DNA of 64,000 nt, taken from IMG/VR virus record IMGVR_UViG_3300025669_002431, one strand, 5' to 3'. Within the stretch, counting starts at the first letter, position 1. Every line of letters starts with the position of its first letter. The notes under the pieces are model-generated. The model was not told where the DNA came from and made no database searches. It was given only the letters and a program-made list of their open reading frames with translations. Positions 3,804 through 58,635 of the stretch are shown here, one piece after another. Both the position numbers and the translations under genes were made by a program. This stretch comes from a virus.

Positions 3804-3864
3804 TGGCCGGGACGGCGAGGATCGAACTCGCGACAGATGCTCTACCAACTGAGCTACGTCCCGG
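3804..3864 (-). ncRNA. 61-nt tRNA-like element lacking an anticodon arm
   Basis: Acceptor CGGGACG/CGTCCCG, canonical D-arm GCTC-AGTTGGTA-GAGC, T-arm GCGAG-TTCGATC-CTCGC and 3' GCCA. Only 7 nt lie between the D and T arms. Confidence 0.5.
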
Positions 3865-3994: not shown

Positions 3995-4085
3995 AAGATA
4001 AACTATATGGGATTTGAACCCACATTTCCGGATTGCGGTCCGGTGCCCTACCAATTAGACGAATAGCCGCTATACATATTGTCTC
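3995..4085 (-). pseudogene. degenerate tRNA-like sequence (pseudo-tRNA)
   Basis: Has a T-arm GTGGG-TTCAAAT-CCCAT and a D-loop AATTGGTA motif. Acceptor and anticodon stems do not pair canonically and no CCA is present. Confidence 0.35.
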
Positions 4086-15051: not shown

Positions 15052-16743
15052 TTATTTGGATTTAATATGTTCATCTACATACTCTGCGATTCTTTGATTG
15101 ATTGAAGAATAGGTAGATATTGTGATTGCCATATTTCGTTCAGATCCTGCCTCTTTTAATGATCTAAGCAAATACTTTTTAATTATAGGTGCCAATTTTG
15201 GAATATGTATATTTAATATTTCATCAAATGGACATATTAAATCAAAAGATTTTTCTTCTTGTTTTATAAAATGTCTCATTCCAAATAATATTGGAAACCA
15301 TATGGGTTTTTTATTATAAGGTAGAGAATCTCTACTAACATCTATGTTTTTCTTTAAATATATGCTTAAAAATGTTAAAGGTTTTACATACTCTTTTGGA
15401 ATCTTTATCTTTTTAGAGGCTGAATCATATTTGATTGATTTGACATATGATAATAGTTTTATTTTATTACCATCAGAATATTTATCATCATTAAAATCTA
15501 ATTCTATATTAAATTTATCTATAATTAGAAGTATAAATGGTGATAACGGATACACTTTAGATTTATATTGTTCATCTAGATTTTTTATTACCTCTGAAGA
15601 TAATCCATAATATTGAATTACTCGATCATATGTACCATCCTCGTTATATATATCTTTTGGGAAAAATTTATTGTCTATATTTAGCAGCATAGAATATTTT
15701 AATAATGTTAAATCTACAATTATACCTGGATCATTTTCAGTCCATCCTATAAATGATTTAAAACTTTGTCCATTATCTGAATATTTATCCAACTCAGATT
15801 TTAATTCAACATAATTACCTTTAGAATTTTCTATAGATCTAATTTTTAATGAAACAGAATCATTAAGACATCTAACCATCTCACTTATTTGATGTTCATT
15901 ATTAGATATATTTATCGTTAATTTAACAGAATTTGTATTAAATGGATCAAATACGCCTTTATTTGTATTTTTATCATCTATAACTCTGTCGTATAATTTT
16001 CCAGATGTGTTTCTACCATCCCCTATTCCTTGTGGTAATCCTTTTTCTTCAATTATTTTGCCGAATTCATCAAATACTCCTGGTTGAAAATATACATTGA
16101 ATTCATTTTTATTTACTTTAAATATATATCGCGCAAAAACTTCTATACCCTTATTTTTATTATAAAAATCATTTTTAATTTGATCCTCTAATTCATTTTT
16201 CGCGCTAAGATCTATAATATTGCATATTTTTGATGTTAAATCTTGTGTTCTTGGATTGGCATCTCTCATTAGTTGTTTATAATTATTAAAAGATGTACAA
16301 TTATTTATAGGTAAGTGTGTAGGAAAATCTTTTAATGATATTTCAAATATATTTTTATACATTCCATTAATTATATGTGAAATAAGTTTATTTCCTATAA
16401 TCCGCATACATAATGGTTTAACTCCATTGAATGGGATACATTTAAATCCTGCCATTTCTTCTTCACTTACTACATATATTTCATCTGATCCAATTTCTTT
16501 ACATTTGCCTTTATGAAGTCTATAGTTTCCTTGTACTTCTTTCTCTATATCTTCTGGTTTCTTAGTAGTATTATAATCAATATGATGGATTTCATAAAAT
16601 TCACGTTTTTTCGTTGATGTTAAATTTTTAATCCTCTCTTCTAGATTAGTAGTATATCCTATTTTTACATAATATTTATCATTTTTTGGATCATCTACAC
16701 CTTTAATTTCAAGCATATAAACACAAAATTTATTTTGGTTCAT
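15052..16743 (-). CDS. GIY-YIG (T5orf172-type) domain protein
   Basis: N-terminus FCVYMLEIKG...YYVKIGYTTNLEERIKNL matches the T5orf172 GIY-YIG-like domain. The remaining 450 aa have no recognisable motif. Confidence 0.55.
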   Translation of the reverse strand: MNQNKFCVYMLEIKGVDDPKNDKYYVKIGYTTNLEERIKNLTSTKKREFYEIHHIDYNTTKKPEDIEKEVQGNYRLHKGKCKEIGSDEIYVVSEEEMAGFKCIPFNGVKPLCMRIIGNKLISHIINGMYKNIFEISLKDFPTHLPINNCTSFNNYKQLMRDANPRTQDLTSKICNIIDLSAKNELEDQIKNDFYNKNKGIEVFARYIFKVNKNEFNVYFQPGVFDEFGKIIEEKGLPQGIGDGRNTSGKLYDRVIDDKNTNKGVFDPFNTNSVKLTINISNNEHQISEMVRCLNDSVSLKIRSIENSKGNYVELKSELDKYSDNGQSFKSFIGWTENDPGIIVDLTLLKYSMLLNIDNKFFPKDIYNEDGTYDRVIQYYGLSSEVIKNLDEQYKSKVYPLSPFILLIIDKFNIELDFNDDKYSDGNKIKLLSYVKSIKYDSASKKIKIPKEYVKPLTFLSIYLKKNIDVSRDSLPYNKKPIWFPILFGMRHFIKQEEKSFDLICPFDEILNIHIPKLAPIIKKYLLRSLKEAGSERNMAITISTYSSINQRIAEYVDEHIKSK

Positions 16744-19477: not shown

Positions 19478-19855
19478 TTATTGCTTTGTAGCTTTTTCGA
19501 GTTTCTCGTAAGCGTCCATTGTCTTCTCGGCTGCGGCTTTGTTGATAAGATCTCTGAGTTTGGAAACGCGTTCTCTATTCTTCTTCCGTTTCGCGTTTTT
19601 CTTCTCTGAGTAGGCGTTGGAAACATCTGCACCGCCACTGTCGAATGTTTTCACGTCTGGACTTCTCAACTTGGTTTCGAATTCGGCATCCAAACCAAGT
19701 ACCAATCGATAACCATCCGTCATTATTTGAATTCGTCTTGCTTTTTCTTTTTCAACTTCAAGTAATACAACTGATGCAATAATGTCTTGTGATCCAATTT
19801 CTGCGGCAACTCTTTCTTTGAGTGTGTCTACGACTTCGACTACTGGCTCTGGCAT
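19478..19855 (-). CDS. hypothetical protein
   Basis: 125-aa ORF over a moderately GC-elevated stretch. Confidence 0.35.
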   Translation of the reverse strand: MPEPVVEVVDTLKERVAAEIGSQDIIASVVLLEVEKEKARRIQIMTDGYRLVLGLDAEFETKLRSPDVKTFDSGGADVSNAYSEKKNAKRKKNRERVSKLRDLINKAAAEKTMDAYEKLEKATKQ

Positions 19856-19947
19856 GGTTATACCCTTTCTTTGTTCGTTGTTTTTGAGGACAAACTATAA
19901 ACTGGTAGGCACGCTTGTCCTGCACTACGCCCTTGGAGATAAAATTA

Positions 19948-20516
19948 TGAAAAATCTTAATGAAAATGAACTTAGAGATCTATATTTAAATAAAGAATTA
20001 AATCCGTATGAGATAGGAAAATTGTTAGAATGTGATCATAAAACAATTAGGAAATACTTAAAAGTATATAATATTCCTATGAGGTCTGCATCAGAATATA
20101 ATTATATCCCTCGTAGATCACACACTAATCCTATTAAGGGGGAATATATGATACCATCGTCTATAGCTGCTCATGTTGCATATTTATGTGAGGGTTGGCA
20201 TACTGAGAAAACTGATATGTTACAGTTTTGTAACACAGATCCAAATTTGATAGATTTATTTACTAATTGTTTAACCAATGTATATAAAGTCAATAAATAT
20301 AGACTAGTAATAATGTCTAATTCTAAAGAGGAATGTGATCATCTTTTAAAATTATATCCAAATGCTTCTCAGTATATAGAAGCCGGTCGAAAAACTCCTT
20401 TAGTTAGAGTTATTTGTGGTGGAAAAACTATAGCTAGAGATTTTATAAAAAATGCATACTCTATATTAGAAATGGTAGGCGGGGAGGGAGTCGAACCCTC
20501 AGACACCAGATTCTAA
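19948..20516 (+). CDS. HTH-containing protein, possible free-standing homing endonuclease
   Basis: The only convincing plus-strand gene. RBS GGAGATAAAATT-ATG. N-terminal HTH (NUMOD1/sigma-r4-like: ELRDLYLNKELNPYEIGKLLECDHKTIRKYL). The 3' end runs into the tRNA at 20473. Confidence 0.4.
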
Positions 20517-20549
20517 ATCTAGCCGCTTTGCCAGTTTGCGCACCCGCCC
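20473..20549 (-). tRNA. type-I tRNA with anticodon TAG (Leu anticodon but short 5-nt variable loop)
   Basis: Acceptor GGGCGGG/CCCGCCT (G1:U72), anticodon arm CTAGA-TTTAGAA-TCTGG, T-arm GAGGG-TTCGACT-CCCTC, ACCA. No long variable arm. Confidence 0.55.
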
Positions 20550-20560
20550 ATATTTAAAAA

Positions 20561-20654
20561 TGGCGGAGGAGATAGGATTCGAACCTATGGAGGACGTCTT
20601 TCAGCCCCCAACGGTTTAGCAAACCGTCGCAATAATCCACTCTGCCACTCCTCC
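20561..20654 (-). tRNA. tRNA-Ser (anticodon GCT), long variable arm
   Basis: Acceptor GGAGGAG, anticodon arm ACGGT-TTGCTAA-ACCGT, 21-nt variable arm, T-arm ATAGG-TTCGAAT-CCTAT, GCCA. Confidence 0.65.
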
Positions 20655-20660
20655 GATCAA

Positions 20661-20942
20661 TCAACCGTCTATAATATCAAACCATTTATTCATTATACCT
20701 TTAATCCATGTTAATTCGTAATTATAATTCACAAACACCAAAATTCCAAATACAGTTAATACGCATCCTACAACAATAAGCATCCATGGACAGGTTATAA
20801 TAGTCATAATTATTCCACAAACTACTCCCAATACCATTAATCCCCCAATAAGTAAAAACAAGAATAATTTGACTAAAAATTCAAATGATTCTCTAGTAGC
20901 AGTGTCTAACTTATCCCTATCGATCTCAATTTTCATAACCAC
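20661..20942 (-). CDS. small membrane protein (2 TM)
   Basis: Two hydrophobic helices (LFLLIGGLMVLGVVCGIIM..., WMLIVVGCVLTVFGILVF). Confidence 0.4.
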   Translation of the reverse strand: MVMKIEIDRDKLDTATRESFEFLVKLFLFLLIGGLMVLGVVCGIIMTIITCPWMLIVVGCVLTVFGILVFVNYNYELTWIKGIMNKWFDIIDG

Positions 20943-22239: not shown

Positions 22240-22323
22240 TGGCGGAGGAGGCAGGACTCGAACCTGCAAGACCGAAGTCGCACGCTTTCCAGGCGTGTGC
22301 GTTACCAATTACGCTACTCCTCC
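22240..22323 (-). tRNA. tRNA-Ser (anticodon GGA), long variable arm
   Basis: Acceptor GGAGGAG (same as the other tRNA-Ser), anticodon arm CACGC-CTGGAAA-GCGTG, variable hairpin GAC-TTCG-GTC, T-arm GCAGG-TTCGAGT-CCTGC, GCCA. Confidence 0.75.
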
Positions 22324-36184: not shown

Positions 36185-37128
36185 TAGTTTACCTTCCTAT
36201 TCAGAACCTTTAAGGCTTTCTTTATTGAGCCTAAAGGAACTGAGTTTGTTGCTGTGTCAATATTTAATGTGTATAATTTGTAAGGAAAATATCGAGTATA
36301 TTCTTTGATTTTATTCATCATAATACAACGATCCCAACCTAGTATTTCTCCAGCTAACCACATAGGACCACTGTTTATTCCAATGAAGTATTTACACTCT
36401 GCTATTTTATTCATCATGTCTATAATAGTTCCCCCTGATTCCCTCATGGTATTTCCATTCATCCATTTAGGAATAGGTTGGACACAATAATGTGGCAGCA
36501 TAGGAACATTCATATGAATTTCAAATGGATCATATCCCATCGCTTTAACATCATTCCATACTATTTCGGGACCACCATCCATTAAACTTTTTTTACTATA
36601 AGCAGTATTACCAATGAAATGAATGCCCACCATATTAGAATTTTTAACAGGTTTTATTTTAGGTCTCCAGTTACCCCAATCAACATCTAATCCAAATTCT
36701 AATTTCGCTACATTTTGAAACTTCTTCAGCTTAGAATTCATGGGCTGTTCTGGAAACTTTAAAACAAATATATAATCATATTCTTTAATATATGAACTAT
36801 CATATTTTTCTTTAAATGTATCTTTGAATACAGAAGGTCTATCGTGTTTTCCTTTTGTCTTATTTAAAATCACAATATCTTCGTGTAATCCTTTGACTTG
36901 GATCATGGGGTGACAACCTATATTGAACTCCCAATTAGGATATTTTTTCTTAAGTACTTCATATATCTGGAAGAACATTATGAAGTCGCCAAGCCCATGA
37001 TCGAAAACAAAGAGAGCTTTCCCTGATTTTTTCCTGTTAAGATAAGAACAGACAGTGGCTCTCTTTGAAACTATATTCTCTATTAGCATATTATTTCCAA
37101 ACGTCGGCGTCTTCCTCACTTGTTTCAT
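36184..37128 (-). CDS. putative glycosyltransferase (GT9/heptosyltransferase-like N-terminus)
   Basis: ALFVFDHGLGDFIMFFQIYEVLKKKYPNWEFNI resembles the GT9 signature. Weak. Confidence 0.35.
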   Translation of the reverse strand: MKQVRKTPTFGNNMLIENIVSKRATVCSYLNRKKSGKALFVFDHGLGDFIMFFQIYEVLKKKYPNWEFNIGCHPMIQVKGLHEDIVILNKTKGKHDRPSVFKDTFKEKYDSSYIKEYDYIFVLKFPEQPMNSKLKKFQNVAKLEFGLDVDWGNWRPKIKPVKNSNMVGIHFIGNTAYSKKSLMDGGPEIVWNDVKAMGYDPFEIHMNVPMLPHYCVQPIPKWMNGNTMRESGGTIIDMMNKIAECKYFIGINSGPMWLAGEILGWDRCIMMNKIKEYTRYFPYKLYTLNIDTATNSVPLGSIKKALKVLNRKVN

Positions 37129-39376
37129 ACTGTTCTATTATCTCAGTTCTAAGCACGTCCTCTACATCATTATCCCATGCTTTTCTAAATTCAGCATTTT
37201 CTCTGTAATATTTAATCGCTTCCTTCTGTCTAAACTTCTGAGTAGGATACGATTCTAATGTACACCAAGCGGCAGCTTTAATTCTTTTTGTTCTCTTTAG
37301 TAGTTCATAATTTGTCCAGAAGTTTGAGAAGCCTCTTTCGAAACTAACTATCATGGATATGTCAATGTTTGGAGAAAATAACTTATTCTTTACAGCCTTT
37401 CCTGTGAGCTTAACTCCATTGAATCCATACTCTCCTGCTACATCTCCAGTAGGCCTGAAGAAAAAAAGTTGTGTAGATGCGAATAGATTAGCATTACCTC
37501 CTGGAATATTATACGCTCCAAGAAATTTTAGTTTATTAAATCCTTTGAATTTACCAACCTGCATACTATCTCTAAGTTGATTCAGAGCGAACAAACATAT
37601 ATTATAATTTGCCATCTTATCAGAATATTTTTTAAGATATTTAGTAAGGGCACTTGCTTGTATACTTAATTGTTCTGTATTAGTTGTTACCTCAGCTTCA
37701 GTAGGAGTACTCGCTATACTATCCCATACTATAATGGATGGTACATCTAGTATATCTTTGTGTTCTTCCTTATATGCACATAACCCCTCAACGATTGAGA
37801 ATACCTTTTCGATTGTAATTCCATTTTGTGGATTTATCTCTGGATATTTAACTCCAAGATCTGTAAGTCTTTTTTTAGTAGTTGTATTTTCTGAATCTAA
37901 GTATACTGATATAAATTTTCCAGGCCATTTCCTTTGACCCGAAGATATAACCTTCGCAGCCAATGTAGAGTTATGAGTAACTATGAACTCGTCAGTTATA
38001 TATGACCCATTTGGATTATTAACTTCTATGCACTGAGCTTCTGATTTTTCAACAAACTTAACCGATTTTATACATTTCGTTATGGTTCTTTTTCTTATAT
38101 TTGATAATAACTTTGATTTTTCTTTTACTCTTACTGGGGGAAAACAATTTGGTAGGTTTATATCTAGTTGAAATGATTTAAAAATATTCCCATTATATTT
38201 TGTTTTTTTATTATATATTTTTATTCTTCCTCCCAATGATCTAATTATAAATGCTACGTCATCTATCAATCGTTTAGATATTGAATAAAAACACATTCTA
38301 TTTGTTTTTTCTATAGATCCATCAGTATCACATAACCCTTGTAAGATTGATAATCTATCATCAATTGAACTAAATTTATATGAATCTGGTATAAATTTAT
38401 CTTTAGAACTTTTTCCCAATAATCCTAATTCATTTAAAATAACTTTCATCTCATTGCGTAAAATATCTTTTTTGCCTTGACCTCTTCTATTCATTCTATT
38501 AAATATATATCCGTATTTTGAGCCATTAATTACCTCTAATTTTATATTATCTGGGAGGGTTTTTTCACAAATATTTATAATTTCTTTATATTTATCAGAT
38601 ACTGTAAGAGATATTTTATCATTTCGACTATACATAGATCCATCTCCCAAAAGGCACCCCAATAAATATGGGTCAATCGGTAAATTATTTTTATCAAAAT
38701 TAATAGCATTATTAACAGGTATGGTCCATTTTTTATCGCTAGTATGTTGGTTATTTATATCTTCAAAAATCTCTTCTAATCGTCTAACTTTAAATTCTGA
38801 TTTATAATCTTTTTTACATATCCAAAGATGGTCTAACGTGGATCTAGCTTTGGTTCCGTCGGTAAATTTTATTTCATATATATCCTTTTCCCCCTGTGGA
38901 GATACATTTGTAATATTACAAATTTCCCCTCTAGAATCAAATACATTATTTCCTATTTTCATTTCTCCCATAGTCTTCCAACCACTAGGTGTTAAAATTT
39001 TAGAATACAATGGTTGTGCTTTTCCACAACCAGGAGGCCCAACAAATTGTACTAATCCTGTCGAGACTCCTCCACCAAGTACAGTATCCAATAGATCTAT
39101 ACCAGTAGGAATAGTTGTCTTATTTTCTTTTGATTCAGTAAAGTCATATCCTTTTTTAAGGAAAGAAGAAAAGTCTTCAAATAAGTCTTTAGATTTTTCT
39201 AATTCACCTTCTGTCAGCTTGACATCCGAATATTTACTAGTTATTAATGTATCTTCTTCTATTGATGCTGCCGCTTCCGTTGGGACCTGAGGTAGCAAAG
39301 TTTTCTTTTTCTTTTTCTCCTGCACTGCAGGAATTGATTCTTCTTCAACAAGTTTATCCATTATCTTCCTTTCCAA
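37091..39376 (-). CDS. RecA/UvsX-family recombinase interrupted by a LAGLIDADG intein in the Walker A loop
   Basis: The extein reads LGGGVSTGLVQFVGPPGCGK-STLAAKVIS...VYLDSE, a RecA-like P-loop. The insert has LAGLIDADG motifs (LLGCLLGDGSM, LQGLCDTDGSIE) and ends THN|S. Confidence 0.7.
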   Translation of the reverse strand: MERKIMDKLVEEESIPAVQEKKKKKTLLPQVPTEAAASIEEDTLITSKYSDVKLTEGELEKSKDLFEDFSSFLKKGYDFTESKENKTTIPTGIDLLDTVLGGGVSTGLVQFVGPPGCGKAQPLYSKILTPSGWKTMGEMKIGNNVFDSRGEICNITNVSPQGEKDIYEIKFTDGTKARSTLDHLWICKKDYKSEFKVRRLEEIFEDINNQHTSDKKWTIPVNNAINFDKNNLPIDPYLLGCLLGDGSMYSRNDKISLTVSDKYKEIINICEKTLPDNIKLEVINGSKYGYIFNRMNRRGQGKKDILRNEMKVILNELGLLGKSSKDKFIPDSYKFSSIDDRLSILQGLCDTDGSIEKTNRMCFYSISKRLIDDVAFIIRSLGGRIKIYNKKTKYNGNIFKSFQLDINLPNCFPPVRVKEKSKLLSNIRKRTITKCIKSVKFVEKSEAQCIEVNNPNGSYITDEFIVTHNSTLAAKVISSGQRKWPGKFISVYLDSENTTTKKRLTDLGVKYPEINPQNGITIEKVFSIVEGLCAYKEEHKDILDVPSIIVWDSIASTPTEAEVTTNTEQLSIQASALTKYLKKYSDKMANYNICLFALNQLRDSMQVGKFKGFNKLKFLGAYNIPGGNANLFASTQLFFFRPTGDVAGEYGFNGVKLTGKAVKNKLFSPNIDISMIVSFERGFSNFWTNYELLKRTKRIKAAAWCTLESYPTQKFRQKEAIKYYRENAEFRKAWDNDVEDVLRTEIIEQYETSEEDADVWK
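37970..39019 (-). mobile_element. intein with LAGLIDADG homing endonuclease (in the RecA-like gene)
   Basis: About 350 aa with block A-like ILTPSGWKTM..., two LAGLIDADG motifs and C-terminal ...IVTHN followed by Ser. Confidence 0.6.
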
Positions 39377-55404: not shown

Positions 55405-58400
55405 CTATTTTTTAATTTCACAACTACCATTATCGCAGAATTTTAGCGTTTCTTTTGATTCTATCTCTTCTTCTTTAGTCATTTTTATCTTCGATAATTT
55501 TAAAGGTTTTAGGGTTGATATATATAATTCATATTTTTCTTTTGTAATTTCTTCATATGGCATTTGTTTATATGATTTCACATCAAGAGGTAAAAATGAT
55601 ACAGCTTTTATTTTGTCTTCATATACTTCTAACACATCTTTAATCGAATTAGATTCATTTTCGTTAAATGTTACAGTCTGTGATACACCATTATCAGACC
55701 AATAGTGTTGTATATCTGCGTGAAGAGCCATTTGTTCCCATATAGTAATATCTCTCTTGGATTTAAAGAAATTTTTAGTTCTTATTGGAAATTCAAAAAT
55801 CCACGAATTTTTTTTATAATAAGACTGCTCTTTTTTATATCCGGCAATTTCTAGTGGTTTAATAAAAGGAGAGTTTTTTTGAAATTCTATTCTTCGAATA
55901 TAATATTCTGAGTGTGGAAAATGAATACCCGGATTACTTCCTGGTAATAATGATACAGTATTATGACTTTTTATACCTCCGGAATAATACCAATGATCTT
56001 TATCGACTTCTAAATCATACGTTTCTTCATACCCTTCTAATTCATGTACACTTACTACTTTACCTAAAATTAAAACATTTTGAGATTCAGTCAGACACTT
56101 AAATGATATATCATGTGGTGGATTTCGCATGTCATTTATTTTTATTAATTTATTGGATGTTTTTAATAATACATGGAGAGAATTAATATCTGTGTGGGAA
56201 TTTAATGTTAAATTCCATATATGTTTAATTTCTTGTTTGTTCTCCCCTTCTGTATTCAAAGATCTTCCAAAACATAATCCAACAGAAAATCCAACTTCTT
56301 GTATATTTTTTGCAAAATTATCATAGGCGGTTGAAATACATATTCCCACATCGCCGTCACGAACAAATACACAACCATCCGAATCAATTAATCCCGAAAT
56401 AAATGCTAAAATATTTTCTTTAGATGATTCTCTTACAATTCTTGGAATTACCGATATATTGCCCTGTTCATCATATTTAGTTATTCCATTAATATTCCAA
56501 AAGTCCCAAAGATGCCGAGACCCAATTTCAAGCACAAACGCGTTTCTATCTTGACTTGCAGGTTTTATATTAGAGTCTAATCCAAATAAATCATATATTA
56601 TTTTTTTTGCTTTTTCCAGATTATATTTATTCTCATCTATAAATCTAGTTCTAAATTTATGTCTACTCAAACAACCGTCTCCATATAAATATCCTATAAT
56701 CCAAGCAAGATCATTATTCATATATTCAGGTTGAGTTATAATATTTCCACGAGCACCAATAAAAGTATCTGGTATTGCTGAATGGGATAGTTTTGAACAA
56801 ATATTTTTTCTATAAGAATTCATACTAATATGAATAATATCGCCAGCTCGAACATCATTGGCACATATCCATTTGTTGACGTCTATTCTCTTATATCCTC
56901 CTTTTTCACTACTAGCATTCATATGTTCACTAACAAACACCATATGATTCGGGGTGCATTCAAAATCTAAATTGTAGTTCATTTTAATTTTAATTATTTT
57001 AGAAGTACTATTTCTATATGTTCTTAATATTTTATTTTTACTATTTTTCTGGTATACATAACTATCACTGTGATCGTTGTTCCACTCCAAATCTTCAGGA
57101 TGTTCTTCTAATAATTCATCTAGAGATAAAATCCCTCTATCTGTCGAAGTTAACGATCTACCCGGTCTACAACCACTCGGTTTTGTCGTAGTTACTTTTA
57201 TACTTTTCGGTACACATAACCACCTAGAATATAATTTATCCAGTTTTCTAATATTATTATATCCAGAATCACAAAACTCATTAAGAAACCTACGTCTACC
57301 AAATTTATAAATAGCATCTGTTATTCCTGACATAGATAACCCAATTCTTCTATTTCTAAGCATAACTTGATTTGTGCGTTCATCATGAGATGGTACTAAT
57401 GTAACACTTTTAGCTAAAAGATAAGCATATTTAAGAGTTTCTAAAAATTCTTCTTCGTTTTCATGATTAGCTGGAAATGTTTCACACAATAAACACATTT
57501 CATATTTTGATAGTGACATTTCAGCACAGGGATTTAATCCACAAACTCCCTCATCTTCCCATTTCTCTCCATCTTTTATCCTCCCATACTTTCTCATATT
57601 ATCTAAATACACTATTCCTGGTTCACCGTTATTAATAATGTGCTTGGTTAATTGTGTATAATCTGCACCAACTTCAGCAAATACTGAATTGTTTGAATTC
57701 CATCTCCAATCCTTTAATTCCTTTTCATATTTCTCAGGATTTTTCATATTCAAAAAATCAATATCATCATATTCTCCTATTGCTATTTCACTAGACCTTC
57801 TTTGTCCACCGCTTACTACACATTTCCCAACTATATTGAAAATATCAACTATATTTACAGATGTAATATATTTATCTACACATTTATTAAGAACCAGTTT
57901 TATCTCTTCTATACATAATTTTAATGGACCTGGTCCGGGAGCAATGCCTCCAAATGTTTTTATAAAACTTCCGTTAGGTCTTATTTTACTAAAATCAAAT
58001 TCTCTGGGCATTTTTGATTTATGAACATAAGAGTTTAATACTACTTCCACAGCATCTCTCCAACCTTCTCTACTATCATCTATAGTAAAAACATAATCTC
58101 CAACCTTAGGTTCTTGAATTTTAACTTTTCCTGCCCCTTTTAGATCGAATCCGCACCCTACCCCCAATAAAGCAACGTCCATTAACCAACAAAAAGGTCC
58201 ACTAAAATCATAATGTAGATCTTCAGTGGAACAAAATCCACAATTTAATAAAACAGCTACTCCTTTTTTCCAAACAACATCTTCTCCAAGGGTCCACAAC
58301 ATTCTCCCTGGAGGAAGAAATTTAAAATTCCACATCAACTCAAACATTTTTTGAGCAGATTTCTGTGCTTTATGTGCATTCCAATACAATCTTAAATTTT

Positions 58401-58635
58401 TACAATGATTTAGTTGAATTGTATAACATCCTTCCACTACTCGTTTGAGAGTCTCCCAAAATTCTTCATATCTATCTTCTTTTTCAATATATCGACTATA
58501 CGTTCTTTTATATGTAATAGCTCCAACTGGTCCCCAATTAGGTTGCTCGTTTGTATATTGATCTAAAAAATTCTCTGTCAAATTAAACTTTTCCCTGATT
58601 GGAAAAACCCAATCACTCATGTCAACTTTTGTCAT
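55405..58635 (-). CDS. nrdJ: class II (adenosylcobalamin-type, monomeric RTPR-like) ribonucleotide reductase interrupted by a LAGLIDADG intein
   Basis: Active-site GLNPCAEMSL...CLLCETF (N-x-C-x-E). C-terminal redox pair FCDNGSC (C-x4-C). The extein is about 700 aa. The insert has block B ECTPNHMVFV, LAGLIDADG motifs (IGYLYGDGCL, ISGLIDSDGCV) and ends SHN|T. Confidence 0.7.
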   Translation of the reverse strand: MTKVDMSDWVFPIREKFNLTENFLDQYTNEQPNWGPVGAITYKRTYSRYIEKEDRYEEFWETLKRVVEGCYTIQLNHCKNLRLYWNAHKAQKSAQKMFELMWNFKFLPPGRMLWTLGEDVVWKKGVAVLLNCGFCSTEDLHYDFSGPFCWLMDVALLGVGCGFDLKGAGKVKIQEPKVGDYVFTIDDSREGWRDAVEVVLNSYVHKSKMPREFDFSKIRPNGSFIKTFGGIAPGPGPLKLCIEEIKLVLNKCVDKYITSVNIVDIFNIVGKCVVSGGQRRSSEIAIGEYDDIDFLNMKNPEKYEKELKDWRWNSNNSVFAEVGADYTQLTKHIINNGEPGIVYLDNMRKYGRIKDGEKWEDEGVCGLNPCAEMSLSKYEMCLLCETFPANHENEEEFLETLKYAYLLAKSVTLVPSHDERTNQVMLRNRRIGLSMSGITDAIYKFGRRRFLNEFCDSGYNNIRKLDKLYSRWLCVPKSIKVTTTKPSGCRPGRSLTSTDRGILSLDELLEEHPEDLEWNNDHSDSYVYQKNSKNKILRTYRNSTSKIIKIKMNYNLDFECTPNHMVFVSEHMNASSEKGGYKRIDVNKWICANDVRAGDIIHISMNSYRKNICSKLSHSAIPDTFIGARGNIITQPEYMNNDLAWIIGYLYGDGCLSRHKFRTRFIDENKYNLEKAKKIIYDLFGLDSNIKPASQDRNAFVLEIGSRHLWDFWNINGITKYDEQGNISVIPRIVRESSKENILAFISGLIDSDGCVFVRDGDVGICISTAYDNFAKNIQEVGFSVGLCFGRSLNTEGENKQEIKHIWNLTLNSHTDINSLHVLLKTSNKLIKINDMRNPPHDISFKCLTESQNVLILGKVVSVHELEGYEETYDLEVDKDHWYYSGGIKSHNTVSLLPGSNPGIHFPHSEYYIRRIEFQKNSPFIKPLEIAGYKKEQSYYKKNSWIFEFPIRTKNFFKSKRDITIWEQMALHADIQHYWSDNGVSQTVTFNENESNSIKDVLEVYEDKIKAVSFLPLDVKSYKQMPYEEITKEKYELYISTLKPLKLSKIKMTKEEEIESKETLKFCDNGSCEIKK
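55960..57156 (-). mobile_element. intein with LAGLIDADG homing endonuclease (in the RNR gene)
   Basis: About 399 aa, SLTSTDRGIL... to ...YYSGGIKSHN. Blocks A, B, C/E, F and G are recognisable. Confidence 0.6.

Follow-up and report, generated by a model that had tools for sequence, protein, structure and literature searches.

The gene at positions 20473-20549 of the viral sequence IMGVR_UViG_3300025669_002431 combines an anticodon for leucine with a variable loop of only 5 nt, and so raises the question of which amino acid its tRNA carries and what the codon CUA means to the phage that encodes it. The sequence analysed here, a stretch of 64,000 nucleotides (the window), is phage-like and AT-rich, with about 31-43% GC. 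When 24 kb of the window were compared with GenBank phages by megablast, the sole match was a tRNA-Val fragment, and no close relatives were revealed.

The gene is located on the minus strand and consists of 77 nt, including an encoded CCA end (20475-20473) that follows the discriminator A73 (20476). ARAGORN places a tRNA-Leu(tag) on the minus strand at 20473-20549, with the anticodon at gene position 35. Rfam RF00005 matches 20549-20476 over its full length (model positions 1-71, posterior 1.00) with 56.4 bits, compared to a gathering score of 29 bits; the E-value of 1.8e-9 refers to the whole window. Read along the minus strand, the 5' half is GGGCGGG-UG-CGCA-AACUGGCAA-AGCG-G-CUAGA-UUUAGAA-UCUGG and the 3' half is UGUCU-GAGGG-UUCGACU-CCCUC-CCCGCCU-A-CCA. 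The D arm (20524-20540) is formed by three pairs, C10-G25, G11-C24 and C12-G23, followed by an A13·A22 mismatch, and its loop AACUGGCAA contains A14, A15 and G18G19 in the geometry of a type II tRNA-Leu. The anticodon loop comprises seven nucleotides, UUUAGAA, with U33 and A37, and presents the anticodon 5'-UAG-3' at positions 34-36 (20513-20515, CTA on the plus strand), as placed by the sequence itself, ARAGORN and the Rfam alignment. The variable loop UGUCU occupies positions 44-48 (20501-20505 in the Rfam alignment) and ends in U48; the long variable arm of type II tRNAs is absent. In the acceptor stem, position 1 forms a G1:U72 pair and position 3 a G3:C70 pair. All four stems are fully paired save the 13:22 mismatch, and the universal tertiary nucleotides U8, A14, G18G19, U33, G53-U54-U55-C56 and A58 are all present. 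The gene thus encodes a real tRNA in the standard register. An earlier note, made from the letters of this DNA, had described the same fold, namely the anticodon arm CUAGA-UUUAGAA-UCUGG, the anticodon UAG, a 5-nt variable loop, G1:U72 and A73, and each of these elements is confirmed by the sequence, ARAGORN and Rfam. Its reading would have been overturned by a different register of the anticodon loop; since ARAGORN and the covariance model agree, no such register is suggested, and none was found. The minus-strand location and the encoded CCA end had not been part of that description.

Apart from the missing arm, the body of the molecule is that of a leucine tRNA. The type II tRNA-Leu(UAG) of Microcystis phage Mvi-JY20 is identical to the window tRNA at 60 of the 74 aligned positions (81%, pairwise alignment), and the sole gap, of 8 nt, falls inside the variable arm of the Mvi-JY20 molecule. 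Both tRNAs have the same acceptor stem (GGGCGGG/CCCGCCU, with G1:U72, A73 and CCA), the same anticodon and the same D-arm geometry, and their T arms differ at one loop base. The Mvi-JY20 tRNA is 85 nt long and carries a 13-nt variable arm and G37, in place of which the window tRNA shows a 5-nt loop and A37; G37 was also found in the other longer-arm CUN-type relative compared, HMD-P2. When the T stem and the 3' strand of the acceptor of the window tRNA were sought in viral contigs, two more tRNAs were recovered, both of them type II Leu, with the anticodons UAA and GAG. The D stem of three pairs with its A13·A22 mismatch, the D loop AACUGGCAA and U48 are, judged by sequence comparison, typical of tRNA-Leu over ordinary type I tRNAs. 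We also scored the window tRNA with anticodon-masked sequence HMMs for each isotype, a crude stand-in for the isotype models of tRNAscan-SE. The HMM of type I Leu (344 unique tRNAs) gave 42.3 bits and every other isotype at most 26.0, a comparison that is partly circular, as some of the training tRNAs had been retrieved with a pattern derived from the D loop of the window tRNA. The type II Leu HMM gave 25.6 bits against 26.0 for Tyr and did not separate Leu from Tyr, Gln and Cys (about 26). Taken together, the sequence relationships indicate that the window tRNA descends from tRNA-Leu.

The determinants expected to be read by a leucyl-tRNA synthetase (LeuRS) are likewise all in place: A73, U8-A14, the A15-U48 Levitt pair, G18G19 and U55C56. 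The identity elements described for E. coli tRNALeu are A73, A14, A15-U48 and G18G19/U55C56 (PMC6614811, PMC2377443), and the sequence of the variable arm is not treated as an identity element in the bacterial studies (PMC2377443, PMC6614811). The earlier note had suspected that G1:U72 and A73, together with the short loop, might direct charging by a different synthetase. This suspicion does not hold, as G1:U72 is found in 15 of the 17 phage Leu tRNAs that were aligned, and the pair also occurs in E. coli tRNALeu(UAA) (PMC6614811). Because the type II tRNA-Leu of Mvi-JY20 has an identical acceptor stem with G1:U72 and A73, these features represent a leucine chassis and not a foreign identity set.

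If another synthetase did charge the tRNA, CUA, or CUN as a whole, would stand for a different amino acid in this phage or be mistranslated, as the earlier note had proposed; the short variable loop, unusual for a tRNA-Leu, is what favours such a reading. The Leu-type body, 81% identical to a type II tRNA-Leu(UAG) and equipped with all core determinants of LeuRS, argues against it. AlaRS is excluded by G3:C70, and a serine identity is countered by the lack of a long arm. Other synthetases that use A73 rely, to our knowledge, on anticodons that UAG does not provide.

The meaning of CUA can also be read from the proteins of the phage. Among the 1,503 Leu codons of 79 minus-strand ORFs, 235 (16%) are CTA; the codon is thus not avoided, which speaks against its reassignment. 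For each codon, log-odds were added up over the columns aligned to it, in the manner of Codetta but on a small scale, using a NAD-dependent ligase (119 homologues), a class II ribonucleotide reductase (RNR; 85 homologues, intein-free) and a RecA-like protein (27 homologues). Over the 20 CTA columns, Leu scored +23.7 and the next best residue, Ile, -19.9, so that Leu leads any other residue by more than 40 log-odds units. CTA codons occupy columns with invariant Leu at residue 375 of the RNR (85/85) and residue 693 of the RecA-like protein (27/27). All remaining codons received their standard meaning except AGC, which was represented by only two columns. A single one of the 20 CTA columns is Thr-conserved, at RNR residue 165, where 84 of 85 homologues have Thr, and this column taken by itself would favour a reassignment. 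A reading of CUA as Thr was considered and rejected, as the invariant-Leu columns outweigh it; because it would violate many more columns, the CTA codon at residue 165 is treated as an ordinary substitution. We conclude that CUA is Leu in the proteins of this phage. The nearest homologues of the window ligase and RNR come from Hydrogenedentes MAGs, and as a pointer to the host this may serve as a weak hint at most.

A known tRNA of the kind that a reassignment would call for is the tRNA-Thr(UAG) of yeast mitochondria, where CUN has been given the meaning Thr; it has a non-Leu body and a dedicated synthetase. It resembles the window tRNA in being type I with a UAG anticodon. In yeast mitochondria, however, CUN columns read Thr, whereas the window tRNA has a Leu-type body and CUA columns read Leu. 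A further argument against reassignment is provided by relatives of the window tRNA that carry anticodons of the UUR box on the same scaffold (see below). Charging by a synthetase other than LeuRS is therefore highly improbable, and we see no grounds for suspecting that the genetic code of this phage is altered.

Short-arm leucine tRNAs are, in fact, widespread. A BLAST search with the window tRNA found relatives in 239 of 50,697 GenBank phage records, and nearly all of the matches listed are annotated as tRNA-Leu. The best match shows 79.8% identity over 83 nt, so that no close orthologue is present. We inspected eleven of the matched records, from phages of Acinetobacter, Aeromonas, Cellulophaga, Gordonia, Mycobacterium (three clusters), Enterococcus, Escherichia, Salmonella and Pectobacterium. 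These contain 14 short Leu tRNAs of 74-78 nt with the anticodons UAG, UAA, CAG, GAG and CAA, as well as one T5-like Leu tRNA of intermediate form (81 nt). The short-arm Leu tRNAs of mycobacteriophages Bxz2, Whirlwind and Stubby, Acinetobacter phage Acibel004, Aeromonas phage Akh-2 and Cellulophaga phage phi4:1 have the architecture of the window tRNA, as does a tRNALeu(TAG) with a short variable loop from a mycobacterial tRNA cluster (PMC6582537). They measure 74-78 nt and combine an AAYUGGYAR-type D loop with the 13:22 mismatch, U48, A73 and, frequently, G1:U72. The phage members are 74-84% identical to the window tRNA by BLAST, none of them being a close orthologue. When 5,426 E. coli genomes were searched in the same way, nothing matched, even at E-values up to 10.

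We also scanned contigs with a pattern in which three features were fixed: the Leu-type D loop, an NAG anticodon and the spacing that goes with a 5-nt variable loop. A narrower first pattern had no match in viral contigs; the relaxed version matched at least 120 loci in IMG/VR viral contigs and at least 120 in bacterial contigs representing one genome per species. Among the matches listed, ARAGORN called all but one per collection as tRNA-Leu of 73-77 nt. The viral matches listed sit in tRNA clusters, with a median of 12 tRNAs per locus. Of the bacterial matches listed, 77 of the 123 called by ARAGORN are single tRNA genes, many of them in Actinomycetota, and the three bacterial loci examined have ordinary chromosomal neighbours. 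Two positions that the pattern leaves free are nearly invariant among the matches listed: A73 occurs in 114/114 viral and 113/114 bacterial tRNAs, and U48 shows the same counts (114/114 viral, 113/114 bacterial). U8 is essentially invariant and the 13:22 mismatch is found in 228/228 of the matches listed. The G1:U72 pair is more variable (41% of viral and 20% of bacterial matches listed), as is position 37, with 63 A versus 50 G among the viral matches listed.

Another 99 short Leu tRNAs in these viral loci fall outside the pattern, and 72 of them carry CAA or UAA. Among the 97 of these unselected tRNAs that were scored, A73 is present in 96, U48 in 92 and A15 in 94. The family as a whole uses all six leucine anticodons. 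For a scaffold that is combined with anticodons of both leucine boxes, and with only those, a non-leucine amino acid would be hard to explain. The window tRNA displays every feature of the family, that is, a loop of 4-6 nt with U48, a 3-bp D stem, the 13:22 mismatch, the AAYUGGYAR D loop, A73 and a Leu anticodon. It belongs to a class of short-arm Leu tRNAs that is known but under-described. The short arm of phage tRNA-Leu is routinely annotated and rarely remarked on in searchable papers.

Strong covariation emerged when the window tRNA was aligned with sixteen relatives from phages. Within this alignment, 98.2% of cells are paired, and compensatory changes are found in 18 of 20 pairs; none of 500 shuffles reached the observed values, and controls with slid positions were 38-50% paired. 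These values bear on the possibility that the gene is a non-functional relic, a decaying tRNA with a deleted arm that is kept as a recombination or homing site beside an endonuclease-like ORF. Two degenerate tRNA-like sequences in the window, at 3804-3863 (without an anticodon arm) and 3999-4069 (weak), are in keeping with decay. So is an ORF of 244 amino acids on the opposite strand (19782-20516, plus strand) that overlaps the 3' half of the tRNA gene, to which its last 44 nt are antisense. The likelier start of this ORF is M55 at 19944. Its residues 59-106 give weak matches to the PHROG category 'HNH endonuclease' (E=4.5e-5); no Pfam match was obtained even at E-values up to 1, and no PDB sequence match. 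From these similarities, the ORF may be regarded as a candidate free-standing homing endonuclease. The tRNA itself shows no decay: its stems are paired save for the family-typical 13:22 mismatch, its tertiary nucleotides and CCA end are intact, and it scores 56 bits with Rfam. The build without an arm has been maintained, with compensatory changes, in hundreds of independent genomes, a pattern that points to selection and not to decay, and we regard a relic as very unlikely.

That a LeuRS can charge such tRNAs is established for Streptomyces coelicolor, whose type I tRNALeu(CAA) has a 5-nt variable loop and is charged, like the type II molecules, by the only LeuRS of the species (Fan et al., NAR 2019, PMC6614811). 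The statement in the earlier note that bacterial tRNA-Leu always has a long arm is contradicted by this example, by the mycobacterial cluster, in which the short variable loop of tRNALeu(TAG) was mentioned in a passing remark (Behra et al. 2019, PMC6582537), and by our viral and bacterial scans. It had also offered a novel Leu isoacceptor as an alternative. The Leu-type body and the family support a Leu isoacceptor; the novelty falls away, as short-arm Leu tRNAs were already known. The S. coelicolor tRNA coexists with type II Leu tRNAs and has U8-A14 in common with the window tRNA. It differs in its anticodon (CAA versus UAG), in its loop ACAGC with C48 in place of U48, and in its setting, the chromosome of a high-GC actinomycete as opposed to an AT-rich phage. 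Moreover, A73 is no identity element in S. coelicolor (PMC6614811), whereas the window tRNA carries A73. Outside of subscription journals, our literature search found no description of a phage-wide class of short-arm tRNA-Leu; what it yielded was the S. coelicolor work and the remark on the mycobacterial cluster.

Acceptance of the short arm is not universal and differs between LeuRS enzymes, as the type I tRNALeu(CAA) of S. coelicolor is reported not to be a substrate of E. coli LeuRS (PMC6614811). The tolerance depends on the leucine-specific domain of LeuRS, and how many nucleotides the variable loop contains affects charging in the S. coelicolor study (PMC6614811). In Aquifex, a tRNALeu with its arm deleted retains about 8% of kcat/Km (PMC2377443). 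Among the phages with short-arm Leu tRNAs are Felix O1-like coliphages, although E. coli LeuRS reportedly rejects the Streptomyces one.

We propose, with a probability of roughly 0.8, that the window gene is a functional phage tRNA-Leu(UAG) without the long arm that is charged with leucine by the LeuRS of the host and supplements the supply of tRNA for CUA. An ancestral long variable arm would have been lost. Bacterial LeuRS reads A73 and the tertiary core (U8-A14, A15-U48 and G18G19/U55C56), with neither the anticodon nor the arm serving as an identity element, and for this reason the host enzyme would still charge the shortened molecule. The tRNA would decode CUA and, via wobble of U34, probably CUG and possibly other CUN codons. 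With CUA making up 16% of the Leu codons in an AT-rich phage, the tRNA would top up the host pool for an A-ending codon that the phage uses heavily. Other A-ending codons are frequent in the window as well, GCA providing 43% of Ala, GUA 44% of Val and GGA 44% of Gly codons. At least ten tRNA genes are scattered over the minus strand of the window; those besides the Leu and Ser genes discussed here include tRNAs with the anticodons UGC, UAC and UCC and one Ile-like tRNA. Most of the other window tRNAs, with U34 anticodons, would perform the same kind of job.

The loss of the arm is largely confined to leucine. In the viral loci listed, 210 of 248 Leu tRNAs are at most 78 nt long, and type I outnumbers type II by 213 to 35, a ratio that is biased, as loci were chosen for at least one short Leu tRNA. 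Tyr tRNAs in these loci are long (at least 83 nt) in 35 of 44 cases and Ser tRNAs in 86 of 91, and these two figures are free of that bias. SerRS and bacterial TyrRS use the long arm, whereas the identity of bacterial LeuRS substrates does not rest on it. In our reading, only Leu tRNAs go without the arm because their synthetase does not need it, and this is the pattern expected if short Leu tRNAs remain substrates of LeuRS.

A different benefit of arm loss, which would put codon supply in second place, would be the evasion of defences. By analogy, a Leu tRNA without the arm and with A37 could resist nucleases, of the host or of a competitor, or other tRNA-inactivating effectors aimed at type II tRNAs, and the phage could then keep translating when the tRNA-Leu of the host is destroyed. 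Phages use RNA ligases for tRNA repair, and the window encodes an RNA ligase (11658-12746); the predominance of type I Leu in the sampled clusters, with the bias of locus choice given above, would also fit. The model for this proposal is tyrosine: the variable loop of tRNATyr is where Retron-Eco7 and Septu cut, and the tRNATyr of phage T5 escapes by a different variable loop (PMC13096335, PMC11555353). Like the window tRNA, the T5 molecule is a phage copy of a type II tRNA with a variable region unlike that of the host. However, the arm of T5 tRNATyr is altered and not deleted, and its resistance to Retron-Eco7 was shown by experiment (PMC11555353), whereas for the window tRNA, a Leu tRNA with a deleted arm, the argument is drawn entirely by analogy. 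We found no nuclease aimed at the variable arm of tRNA-Leu. Tyr tRNAs, a documented target, mostly retain their long arms in the same arrays, and short-arm Leu tRNAs occur as single genes in ordinary chromosomal contexts of Actinomycetota, where evasion has no obvious role as a driver. Such resistance is unlikely on this evidence. Slightly more doubtful still is the related conjecture that arm loss in phage tRNA-Leu arose as an anti-defence adaptation rather than by neutral streamlining, with LeuRS still charging the product; if it were true, the window tRNA would be one example of a counter-defence design that is widespread but has drawn little comment.

Supplementation of the leucine pool by a LeuRS-charged tRNA thus remains the preferred reading, and tRNA-Leu(UAG) is a suitable annotation for the gene. 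In the main experimental paper, short-arm tRNA-Leu is presented as a rarity among prokaryotes (PMC6614811), yet the viral and bacterial scans each yielded at least 120 loci, and in the sampled phage clusters, with their biased choice of loci, Leu tRNAs with a short arm are more numerous than those with a long one, whereas the arms of Tyr and Ser tRNAs are mostly retained. This raises the general question of which host LeuRS enzymes accept an arm-less tRNA-Leu, and, second, whether arm loss brings a benefit, for example resistance to tRNA-targeting defences. Annotation pipelines that label short-arm Leu tRNAs as 'tRNA-OTHER' or as an isotype conflict could be corrected.

The window tRNA has a tRNA neighbour. 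Directly upstream on the same strand, separated by a spacer of 11 nt, lies a type II tRNA-Ser(GCU) of 94 nt (20561-20654, minus strand; called by ARAGORN, Rfam 57.8 bits). A scan of the region around the pair found no terminator, and the number of promoter-like sites was no higher than in shuffles. One such site on the minus strand, TTGGAA-17-TATAAT at 20721-20749 with 10 of 12 matches, is situated about 67 nt upstream of the tRNA-Ser gene and can be taken, as a lead only, for a candidate promoter of the Ser-Leu pair. The two tRNAs are probably co-transcribed.

Short-arm tRNA-Leu genes, which carry a 4-6-nt variable loop in place of the long arm of type II tRNAs, are found well beyond the phage. 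Among the matches listed from bacterial genome contigs, single-gene short-arm tRNA-Leu with UAG, CAG or GAG anticodons occurs in many Actinomycetota, including Amycolatopsis, Nocardia, Pseudonocardia, Kribbella and Ilumatobacteraceae, and in some Planctomycetota. At each of the three bacterial loci examined, the neighbouring genes are ordinary chromosomal ones. This spread far exceeds the single case in the literature, the tRNALeu(CAA) of S. coelicolor (PMC6614811). On the viral side, a 352-kb jumbo-phage contig with scattered tRNAs (IMGVR_UViG_3300032007_000006, locus L255) combines type II Leu tRNAs (UAG, GAG) with short Leu tRNAs (UAA, CAA), and also has an Ile(UAU) tRNA. The acceptor stem and T stem of its type II Leu(GAG) tRNA are exactly those of the short-arm tRNA-Leu(UAG) in the window.

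Among the alignment columns at phage CTA codons, a lone one is sharply at odds with Leu. It lies at residue 165 of the class II ribonucleotide reductase (RNR; 55405-58635, minus strand), where the CTA codon falls inside the motif GFD-T-xGxG and 84 of 85 homologues have Thr. The RNR gene contains a LAGLIDADG intein, as does the gene of the RecA-like recombinase (37091-39376, minus strand).

A sizeable plus-strand ORF (19782-20516), the sole one within a minus-strand region, enters the tRNA-Leu gene antisense at its end. Its product has an N-terminal helix-turn-helix-like segment and weak PHROG matches to 'HNH endonuclease' (E=4.5e-5), with no support from either Pfam or PDB. The ORF may encode a free-standing homing endonuclease next to tRNA genes, a placement paralleled by SegB of T4, which likewise adjoins tRNA genes. 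A T5orf172/GIY-YIG-like protein is encoded at 15052-16743.

Several further minus-strand tRNA calls depart from the usual form. The tRNA at 14952-15030, called 'Tyr(ata)' by ARAGORN, has a 9-nt anticodon loop (CUUAUAUAU), and its body bears a 75.9% full-length likeness to tRNA-Met/Ile(CAU) genes of phiKZ-like phages. AUA is the most frequent Ile codon of the phage (50%), and this tRNA would decode it if the anticodon is read as UAU. The tRNA-Ser(GGA) gene (22240-22323) has a short variable arm with a stem of about 3 bp, giving a total of 84 nt versus 94 nt for tRNA-Ser(GCU). An 89-nt type II tRNA-Tyr(GUA) called by ARAGORN at 675-763 has an unusual D loop, is overlapped by an ORF (711-1493), and was not reported by Rfam at E values up to 0.1.

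Directly downstream of tRNA-Phe, a tRNA-like sequence at 3804-3863 (minus strand; Rfam, 45.9 bits) keeps the acceptor, D and T arms together with an encoded CCA end, but about 2 nt stand in place of the entire anticodon arm. It may be the relic of a deletion, or else a tRNA mimic that has no anticodon. The weaker match at 3999-4069 (minus strand; Rfam, 41.8 bits), which received no ARAGORN call, pairs poorly at the top of the acceptor, has an apparently 6-nt anticodon loop, and is probably a degenerate tRNA. Also located among the tRNA genes is an RNA ligase gene (11658-12746, minus strand; Pfam RNA_ligase and a PHA02142 OB fold), whose product may serve in tRNA repair.

In the 914-aa product of the minus-strand gene at 7123-9867, Pfam identifies the shoulder and repeat domains of Major Vault Protein (E=7.7e-28). 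The GC content is locally raised around this gene (40-43%), which, contrary to the remainder of the window, uses 61 CTN versus 13 TTR Leu codons; it looks like a recent acquisition.
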